From positions 1,798,001-1,862,000 of the forward strand of contig NC_058381.1 of the NCBI RefSeq assembly GCF_018350175.1: a stretch of DNA of 64,000 nt. Reading direction: 5' to 3'. Each line of letters begins with the position of its first letter. The stretch's first letter is position 1. The position numbers and the translations under genes are program-made. This stretch comes from Felis catus. Taxonomy: Eukaryota. Of the stretch, positions 32,451 through 34,719 are shown piece by piece. The notes under the pieces are model-generated. The model made no database searches and was not told the origin of the DNA. It saw nothing but the letters and a program-made list of their open reading frames with translations.

Positions 32451-33341
32451 GGTTTCTGAGTCTGCTAGTCCAATAGAGCCGGCAACTTCCCAAGTTAAGA
32501 GCACATTTGCACGGCTGTGCTGGGGGGCGTTTAGAGTCCTTGACGAGGGTGCTCTGCTCCCCCCACCCCTGTCCCCTGCCCGGCTGAGGGCATCAGCACC
32601 TGATGCGGGGAAGCTCACCGTGGAGCACAGAGTGGGCTGGGATCAGGGGGTAGGGGTGGAGGGAGTCCCCGCTCCAGCTGCCTCCGTGACCTTGCTTGTA
32701 AAATCAGGACAGTGATAACATGTACCTCCAGGCATCACTGACATGATTAAGCAAGATAACAAGTAAAAAGTCCCTTGAATCTACCTGGCACAGCATAACT
32801 AATCCATTGTCAGTGTCCTATTAAAGGCGACAAGAGCTCCCGGACCGTTTAGTGAGAACCTAACGTTTCCTCGGCTAGCACAATCAATTTCACCTTCCGT
32901 GAGAACAGACTATTTTTTTTTTCTTTATGATTTTACATCGTGGGCATTCTGAATTCTCATTCCAGAATACCAGTGAGTCCCCAGCAGCATCCAGGCTGGA
33001 AGCAAGCTGTCAGCGGATTTTCACGGCTCCTGTCGGTGGTCCCAGCCCCTCTGTGTCTGTCTCTGCCACCTGCCCCCTCCCAGTGGCCTCCTGCTTCTTC
33101 CTGGAGATCAGAGAGGGCTCCCAAATTAAGGGGGCGCGACAGGATAGGTGTCTGAATGGGGTATCTGTCCACCTCTTCCCTCCTCCCTCTCCTCCTCCTT
33201 CCATCCCCTGGCGCCTATAATCACCAGGCGGTCTGAGGCTAAGTGGTAGTTTGGCCCACACTGGGGGGGCTTGCCAGCCACACCCCTCCTCCTGGGGCCC
33301 TCCTGACCAGTCCCAGCACCCTGGTCTCCTCCACTGGTGAG

Positions 33342-34036
33342 ATGGGTCTCAAGGGGGCATGGTGTTTCCCATGGTGTGGGTGCCGGAGGCAGCGGAGGAC
33401 TGGAAGAGGAGCAGGTATGGGGAGGGGGTGGCCGAGGAAAAAGGGGGGCTGGCAGGGAGGCAGAGAGACCGCACCGGGGACAAAGGTACGTGGTCAAGCC
33501 AGTGGAGGGAAAAGAATGGTCTGTTTCGCGGGTGGGAGGTGGGCTTCCCCACAGGGCCGCCTAAATACCTCACAGGGCCGCTGCCGAATGAGCAAGTGAA
33601 GACCCCGTAAAAAAAAAAAAAAAAAAATAGCACCTTCGTGACGGTGACAGCAGCATCACAGCAAGCAGGGGCCCTTCTGCGTGGCAGGTCCCGAGTGACC
33701 GCCCAGGTCGCAGGCCGGTGAAAGCAGCCCTGCTCTCTCCACACCCCCTCTCGGGGCCCCAGGACCCCAGGTGGCCTCCCCGGCCTCTTGGGTCCTCGCC
33801 GTGGGGAAGGAAGGAAGAACACGGGCCGCAACACCCCTCTCCCTCCTCCCATCTCCCTTCCAGGCCTGGATCCGGCTGCCCCTCCGGACCCAAACCCCGG
33901 CCCGGCTGAAGCCCCCACCGTGGCTGAGGGAGGGATACCCTCCCTAGGGTCTGGCGCCTACTTCAGCAGGAAGGCCCGACTCTCCTTCCGTCACCAGCTG
34001 CACGACCCGGCGACGGCCAATGACTCCACCATTTGA
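33342..34036 (+). CDS. C17orf114: C17orf114-like uncharacterised microprotein, 81 aa, 2 exons
   Basis: Exon 1 33342-33414 ([24 protein letters not shown], donor GTATGG); exon 2 33864-34036 after a pyrimidine tract and CAG ([57 protein letters not shown]); phase-1 join, 246 nt; TATAA 33216-33220; ATTAAA 34127-34132; lies between PLD2 and PSMB6 as in human. Confidence 0.88.
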
Positions 34037-34719
34037 TGGGGACGACCGGGGGCTGAACTTTGCAACCTTCCCTCCCCAGACTTCTGGGTGATCCCTGTTT
34101 GGCCCCACAGCCCCCACGACCTTGTCATTAAATATACTCAGAGCTGCCAGGTGCTGTGTGCGCGCGCGTGTCTGTTGGGGGGGCGGGGTGGGAGCGGTTG
34201 AGGGCCGAGGCCCCCCCTCCCCCCGCCCCCGGGGCTGGGGTGCGGCGCTCAGGGGGGGAAGCATAGCACCTATGGTAGGGGACGCGGGAGTGGTGAGTGA
34301 CACAGCTGATCTAACTCGGGGCCCAGGTGGGGGTGGCAGAAGGGAGGGTGCCCCGAAACCTAGCTTCAGAGTTGAGGGTGAGGAGAGGCTGGAGGCCAGA
34401 CTGGACCGCAGATGAGGCGAGGAAGCGTGTGCGTCCCCTCCCTTCCAGGCACTGAGTATGCATCAGTGAACCAAGCAGAGACCCGTCTCTTCTTCCCCAT
34501 CCTCCACCCCACCCCCACCCCCGCCCCGGGGCTCAACTCCTCCTAGGGCACGTAGACACAGGAGCTAAGAGGGCGGTGATCGCTGTGGAGGGAGTCACGC
34601 GGTACCTTGAACATTGGGCAGGAGGGGGGGGGGCGGCTTGGAAATTCCAGGCAGGCAATCAGTTAGGGGCTTTCTGATAAGGTGACATCTGAGACCTGAA
34701 TGTAAGTAGCCAAGGGGAA

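Follow-up and report, generated by a model that had tools for sequence, protein, structure and literature searches.

C17orf114 in the cat genome: an annotated microprotein gene and the evidence for its probable descent from a C2orf72-like predicted pseudo-GTPase

Introduction

A short two-exon reading frame lying in divergent orientation to PLD2 in the genome of Felis catus raises the question of whether it constitutes a gene, to which family such a gene would belong and what its small product might do. The DNA analysed here, referred to below as the window, is a stretch of 64,000 nucleotides from contig NC_058381.1 (assembly GCF_018350175.1; 1,798,001 to 1,862,000), and all positions are numbered from its first letter. 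The gene itself, C17orf114, was already known. What is new, and well supported, is its descent from a C2orf72-like predicted pseudo-GTPase; the hypothesis that its conserved RVSF/RLSF motif serves in docking is also new and is more tentative.

Structure of the gene in cat

The TATAA and ATTAAA signals, the start and stop codons, the intron and the 81-residue product were all found exactly where the original prediction, made from the sequence alone, had placed them (Table 1). No ATG occurs between the TATA box and the start codon at 33342, and neither a remnant of a globular domain nor an in-phase acceptor was found within the window upstream of that codon. An elephant gene model carries an N-terminal extension which matches the cat sequence upstream of the start codon, beginning at the TATA box (51% over 47 amino acids, E 8e-7), and this promoter stretch is therefore conserved. 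Six eutherian gene models (P0003, P0005, P0016, P0018, P0019 and P0023) begin with another first exon which lacks the MG-CF anchor motif, and a soluble isoform of C17orf114 may be produced from an alternative first exon.

The divergent neighbour, with its PX domain, is assumed to be PLD2, and the convergent proteasome beta subunit gene is presumably PSMB6. In the Labeo rohita gene model P0283 a TM4SF5-like protein is fused to the C17orf114 module; the two genes adjoin in carp as in cat and read-through models evidently occur at this locus. No credible second copy of the module was detected in the cat genome among 25 rows, and the best match of a frog query was the C17orf114 locus itself (E 0.06).

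Table 1. Positions of the C17orf114 gene elements and of neighbouring genes in the window
Feature	Position	Strand	Remarks
PLD2 start codon, divergent neighbour	27446..27448	-	inside CpG island ~27300-28500; PX domain match and HKD-type exons
TATA-like element TATAA	33216..33220	+	from sequence; region conserved in read-through of elephant model
Exon 1, coding part	33342..33414	+	carries MG-x5-CF and a basic patch; predicted to form a lipid/basic anchor
Intron	33415..33863	+	GT 33415 to AG 33863, 449 nt, phase 1; from sequence
Exon 2, coding part	33864..34036	+	Pro/Gly linker, conserved core, C-terminus and stop (TGA ending 34036)
Near-invariant core, residues 56-70	33956..34000	+	candidate docking motif with Ser65
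RLSF within core	33977-33988	+	RVSF in basal lineages
C-terminal DSTI	34022..34033	+	family pattern [DN]-[SA]-T-x
Polyadenylation signal ATTAAA	34127..34132	+	from sequence
Proteasome beta subunit gene, convergent neighbour	36873..38750	-	approximate extent
L6/TM4SF family gene (TM4SF5)	49979..56241	-	paralogon marker; syntenic in carp model

Identity, distribution and conservation

The spliced product is identical, letter for letter, to the cat RefSeq model XP_044901163.1 (P0001), named 'C17orf114-like [Felis catus]', and its identification as C17orf114 is thus supported. Its description as a hidden gene was wrong because the gene is annotated in cat, human (NP_001382152.1, CQ114_HUMAN) and mouse (NP_001371184.1, Gm40193). 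Orthology is indicated both by sequence identity and by synteny with PLD2, PSMB6 and TM4SF5. Database names for the protein read 'uncharacterized'. Neither the exon pieces nor the 47 mammalian rows nor the long forms described below matched any Pfam family, searching the PDB by sequence yielded nothing credible, and the 81-residue protein gave no usable match in the Atlas. In the openly available literature searched, C17orf114 receives a passing mention in a gene list of one article (PMC12318406), and no paper on its function was found there.

An initial search yielded 47 mammalian C17orf114 proteins; a mammalian profile then matched 135 proteins at E<=1, reaching ray-finned fish among the best 120 of the 135, and a search without length limit gave 40 representatives, with turtle, lizards, frog, rays and sharks named among them. 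Birds and invertebrates contributed no rows among the matches listed. The counts given below refer to 114 named vertebrate rows, after exclusion of Logan/ENA rows without a name, of near-duplicates within clusters and of the 15 unlisted matches among the 135.

Mean identity to the cat protein over 45 rows is 0.65 for residues 1-10, 0.26 for residues 11-24, 0.25 for residues 25-55, 0.87 for residues 56-70 and 0.36 for residues 71-81, while 24 diverse rows show no variation at M1, G2, C8, F9, S59, K61, A62, R67 and H68. There are two conserved blocks, an N-terminal MG-x5-CF motif with a basic patch and the core YFSxKAR[VL]SFRH, and their arrangement around a variable linker would fit the layout of an adaptor composed of anchor, linker and motif. 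The whole module also forms the C-terminal tail of three long gene models, P0130 of horn shark (357 aa), P0132 of reedfish (513 aa) and P0148 of bichir (535 aa), the first of which is named 'C2orf72 homolog' by NCBI.

Some rows depart from this pattern. An unnamed Logan protein, P0123, carries a decayed contiguous copy of the module in which the core is eroded and the stop codon is missing from its normal position; it resembles a mammalian processed pseudogene and, as such, would imply a spliced germ-line mRNA. Diverged copies in loaches and a seadragon (P0140, P0278 and P0129), with cores including RVAY and RMSF, lie on long tree branches and possibly represent a second teleost duplicate. Three unnamed fish open frames (P0139, P0141 and P0145) read through extra sequence just 3' of the Cys/basic segment, which suggests that a fish intron lies at about the position of the cat intron, in which case contiguous Logan fish rows would derive from spliced transcripts.

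Clues to expression come from zebrafish genes tied to the family through the names of other fishes' proteins. Transcripts of si:ch211-237l4.6 rose by 3.15 log2 in eyes between 3 and 5 dpf, ranking second among 20 unknown genes, and that report states that no human homologue had been found at that time (PMC3530609). The same gene is listed as changed in an RNA study of adult zebrafish brain injury (PMC5752677), and two gene lists include si:dkey-85k7.7 (PMC11822207, PMC9228135).

The predicted N-terminal anchor

The original prediction of a myristoylated, palmitoylated and polybasic membrane anchor holds in part. Gly follows Met in 105 of the 106 rows which carry the N-terminal motif, and the conservation of C8 and F9 extends throughout the diverse rows, but the myristoylation pattern and the three-Cys cluster are confined to eutherians. 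A PROSITE-like myristoylation pattern, which requires a small residue at position 6, is present in 36 of 39 eutherian rows and in 0 of 67 others, and in the long forms the MG pair is internal and not N-terminal. By contrast, the 4-9 Lys or Arg residues within the first 25 amino acids and the position of Cys8 beside Phe or Trp are family-wide features, and the Cys8/basic feature is common to C17orf114 and C2orf72. It is likely, therefore, that the protein is tethered to membranes by S-acylation of Cys8 together with the basic patch, with myristoylation of Gly2 probable only in eutherians. C2orf72 is reported to co-purify with the membrane protein CD81 (PMC6053247).

The conserved core and its candidate partners

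The core had been proposed to be a basophilic-kinase site or a docking motif, and its standing as the most conserved part of the protein supports that proposal. Among the 15 basal rows, which come from turtle, lizards, frog, bichirs, sturgeons and sharks or rays, 10 read RVSF, distributed as 1/1 turtle, 3/4 lizards, 1/1 frog, 2/2 bichirs and 3/5 sharks and rays. H[LV]SF occurs in three basal rows, and RLSF in 45/45 eutherians, 4/4 marsupials and 47/50 teleosts. RVSF fits the docking consensus of protein phosphatase 1 (PP1), [K/R]x(0-1)[V/I]x[F/W], and motifs of the RVxF/RVSF type cease to bind PP1 once they are phosphorylated (PMC6406801). We consider it probable that the core is a docking motif which is switched off by phosphorylation of Ser65.

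The strict RVxF consensus is absent from 45/45 eutherians, 4/4 marsupials and 50/50 teleosts, shuffled sequences produce a loose RVxF-like word in about 9-19% of cases, and the invariant block exceeds what an RVxF motif needs, since S59, K61, A62, R67 and H68 are also kept. Because Leu lies outside the consensus, and in view of the shuffles and the over-long block, PP1 is a rather unlikely partner taken by itself, even as the largest single candidate; another folded partner is rated similarly and calmodulin lower. No paper combining PP1 with RVxF and RLSF was found in the literature search.

The first alternative, which is possible, retains the anchor and the origin of the protein and supposes that the core binds some other folded partner. 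The core could be the effector or binding surface that the long pseudo-GTPase form once used, in which case the microprotein would compete with it, under the control of a basophilic kinase at Ser65. It would account for a block of 15 residues conserved at 0.87, more than RVxF needs, for the tolerated V/L/M and R/H exchanges and for the coexistence of tail and domain in the long forms, and also for the helix, albeit of low confidence, which the AF2 model draws for the core (residues 336-356 of P0130, pLDDT about 44-51), an RVxF motif binding PP1 in an extended form. Against it, the present data provide no nameable partner, and mammalian C2orf72 lacks the core, so that direct competition with C2orf72 at the motif is unlikely.

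It is improbable that the protein is a calmodulin buffer resembling GAP-43 or neurogranin, with an acylated N-terminus, a basic helix carrying 1-8-14 anchors (Y57, L64, L70) and a PKC site, S-F-R, whose phosphorylation would release calmodulin. The 1-8-14 spacing is present in the sequence, S65-F66-R67 is nearly invariant and zebrafish transcripts occur in eye and brain, but there is no Pfam IQ or calmodulin-binding match in the 47 rows, the I, Q and G positions of the IQxxxRG pattern are absent, and rays have two Glu residues in the core.

The C-terminal tail and PLD2

The original prediction envisaged a lipid-anchored protein whose C-terminus fits a class I PDZ ligand, with PLD2 as a suggestive neighbour; that such a ligand works together with PLD2 is a reading that we regard as quite improbable. 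The end S-T-[IVM] is kept in 45/45 eutherians and in 4/5 cartilaginous fish, and it may therefore be ancestral. However, a class I end, scored as [ST]-x-[VILM], is kept in 0 of the 64 other rows, including 4/4 marsupials without it (the frog protein ends in STF), and it therefore appears not to be the core function of the family; moreover, residues 71-81 are far less conserved than the core. In eutherians the tail may nevertheless serve as a PDZ ligand.

With regard to PLD2, the predicted head-to-head arrangement applies to orientation, the genes being divergent neighbours, but not to proximity, since the PLD2 start codon, at 27448, has a CpG island of its own and is separated from C17orf114 by 5.9 kb, with SINE-rich DNA between. 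In bidirectional promoter pairs the start sites lie within about 1 kb on a single CpG island. Such a pair was considered for C17orf114 and PLD2 and rejected, with about 5 kb of SINE-rich DNA separating the PLD2 island from the TATA box; there is thus no shared promoter, and the suggested functional link is unsupported.

Probable descent from a C2orf72-like gene

The long forms provide the connection to C2orf72, which the original prediction did not include. Horn shark and reedfish models share 37% identity over 210 residues spanning both domain and tail, and the shark and bichir models join the domain to the module at equal spacing. A C2orf72 HMM, built from 86 of 119 mammalian rows, full-length ones only, matched P0130, P0132 and P0148 with E-values of 1.8e-17, 4.6e-9 and 3.7e-9, respectively, collinearly through L-x-C-F-x-W-basic, such that LLACFSW-basic of C2orf72 is aligned with VLxCFPW-basic at the start of the module. 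Profile-profile comparison (hhalign) of the long forms with C2orf72 gave a probability of 85.6% (E 5.6e-6). The short family alone gave a weak match at the same motif (probability 1.9%, E 0.026), so that the link to C2orf72 depends on the three long gene models. Pfam PF15443 (DUF4630) itself had no match to P0130, P0132 or P0148 at E<=1, and the nearest Atlas clusters of the long forms carry DUF4630, with scores of 0.91-0.93 and shares of 43%, 75% and 18%. The search for further long forms was dominated by mammalian C2orf72 (best 120 of 147).

For P0130, the Atlas rows comprise three chordate DUF4630-bearing clusters (340, 289 and 221 aa) and a weaker cluster of 172 aa which is commonest in Cnidaria (score 0.84) and constitutes a lead only. 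The DUF4630 family may include a third vertebrate branch and have an older origin.

Gene structure and gene order point in the same direction. In cat, C2orf72 (C17:212.999-213.007 Mb) has three exons, its LxCFSW-basic exon 2 is homologous to the coding part of exon 1 of C17orf114, and a phase-1 intron follows the CFSW exon as in C17orf114. Both genes are flanked, in the same order, by an L6/TM4SF gene on one side and a Cys-loop receptor gene on the other, at distances of 17-23 kb and 71 kb for C17orf114 and 2.83 Mb and 1.17 Mb for C2orf72; the rough chances of sharing these neighbours are 0.009 and 0.027, for neighbour families that were picked with the human paralogon in mind and not blind. 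Since cat C2orf72 retains both the CFxW motif and paralogous neighbours, C17orf114 is very probably its domain-less ohnologue, and the cat protein has no globular domain. In a tree of 28 rows, with a midpoint root and no outgroup, each long-form tail clusters with rows of its own taxon and at least two changes are needed, a topology consistent with an ancestor that had the long form, or isoforms of both lengths, and with loss of the domain on more than one occasion. No literature linking C17orf114 with C2orf72 was found; C2orf72 is itself called uncharacterised in bioRxiv 2024.11.05.622056.

A further reading accepts the gene but takes the long forms to have arisen in annotation, by fusion of a C2orf72-like gene to a short gene next to it, and denies any pseudo-GTPase ancestry. 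It is very improbable, for although only three long models were found, P0283 is a read-through model at the locus, and rays, bamboo shark and sturgeons have short annotations, the domain-module spacing is equal in shark and bichir, mammalian C2orf72 itself has the CFxW-basic motif at that spacing, and intron phase and neighbours match.

A predicted inactive GTPase domain

Using an alignment of 31 rows, AF2 folds residues of about 60-270 of P0130 with a mean pLDDT of 64.9 and core blocks at 84-93, residues 161-270 being mostly within the latter range; a single-sequence fold was poor (pLDDT 42). When the model was compared with 48,161 chains by VIA-align, GTPase G domains ranked first and nearly all of the 50 rows were GTPases, with Z-scores ranging from 11.2 to 8.3 and top values of 11.2 (rmsd 4.5, 136 aligned), 10.6 (2.9, 129), 10.5 and 10.4. 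Foldseek gave no match at E<=0.001, the best being a SAR1/Arf-like GTPase (E 3.9e-3). A P-loop, G-x4-GK[ST], or a G4 motif, [NT]KxD, was present in 0 of the 31 rows. From the modelled G-domain fold and the lack of both nucleotide motifs (G1 and G4), the long forms and C2orf72 are predicted to be pseudo-GTPases, a shared fold in itself showing no function. Small GTPases keep a lipidated tail after their last helix, and it is at this place in the predicted domain that the Cys-plus-basic motif occurs. The bichir long forms, P0132 and P0148, contain about 190 inserted residues that directly follow the first strand in the predicted G domain. No report of a GTPase fold for C2orf72 was found by title or abstract start among the openly available papers listed for that gene.

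A working model and its implications

Our preferred reading, held tentatively, is that the product of C17orf114, which matches the tail of longer shark and bichir proteins with a predicted dead GTPase domain, acts as a lipid-anchored adaptor which would recruit PP1 to the membrane via R[VL]SF. The N-terminus would be tethered to the membrane by S-acylation of Cys8 and the basic patch, with myristoylation of Gly2 in eutherians; the R[VL]SF core would dock PP1 there; and phosphorylation of Ser65 would switch the docking off. A more extensive version, which we consider doubtful as a whole, is that a vertebrate pseudo-GTPase gene, so far unrecognised, was split up after genome duplication and survives as C2orf72 and C17orf114. 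C2orf72 would have kept the dead G domain and an acylated CFxW anchor, whereas C17orf114 would have dropped the domain and would target PP1 to membranes of eye and brain cells, subject to inactivation by phosphorylation of R[VL]SF.

These results would give two human genes without known function a common origin, together with a predicted fold and mechanisms open to experiment. DUF4630/C2orf72 would become a candidate pseudo-GTPase, and C17orf114 would exemplify an old microprotein born by domain loss and not de novo. If the PP1 reading is true, it would also be a very small membrane-targeting PP1 subunit with a natural Leu variant of RVxF.

Comparison with known systems

The cat gene is the orthologue of C17orf114 of human and mouse and of fish si:ch211-237l4.6 and si:dkey-85k7.7, its product being identical to XP_044901163.1. 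With regard to layout, AKAP18/AKAP7 alpha is also small, with Gly myristoylation, Cys palmitoylation and one docking segment, and its gene additionally encodes a longer isoform, which is extended at the N-terminus but ends in the same segment (PMC2174236). Lipidation of C17orf114 is predicted, however, and AKAP18 docks PKA RII, unlike the candidate partners considered here, so that the likeness serves as a working analogy with no claim of sequence kinship. RVxF-containing PP1-interacting proteins, for example KNL1 with RVSF (PMC6406801), share with 10 of the 15 basal rows the RVSF motif, an upstream basic residue, a phosphorylatable Ser and a disordered region; C17orf114 differs in having Leu for Val in mammals and teleosts, and PP1 binding here is putative.

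In predicted fold, the long-form domain aligns with G domains of the small-GTPase (TRAFAC) type, including those of Arf, Rag, ROC and HflX (Z 8-11 for the predicted model), and the pseudo-GTPase CENP-M is found among the weak Foldseek rows (E 0.057). Neither a G1 nor a G4 motif occurs in the 31 rows, and mammalian C17orf114 lacks the domain altogether. C2orf72/DUF4630 (PF15443) has in common with C17orf114 the LxCFxW-basic motif, the phase-1 intron that follows it and paralogous neighbours, and its domain is present in full in the long forms of shark and bichir. It differs in having kept that domain, in the absence of M-G before the motif and in possessing another last exon without the core, 82 of 86 mammalian C2orf72 proteins lacking an RVxF-like word in their last 85 amino acids.
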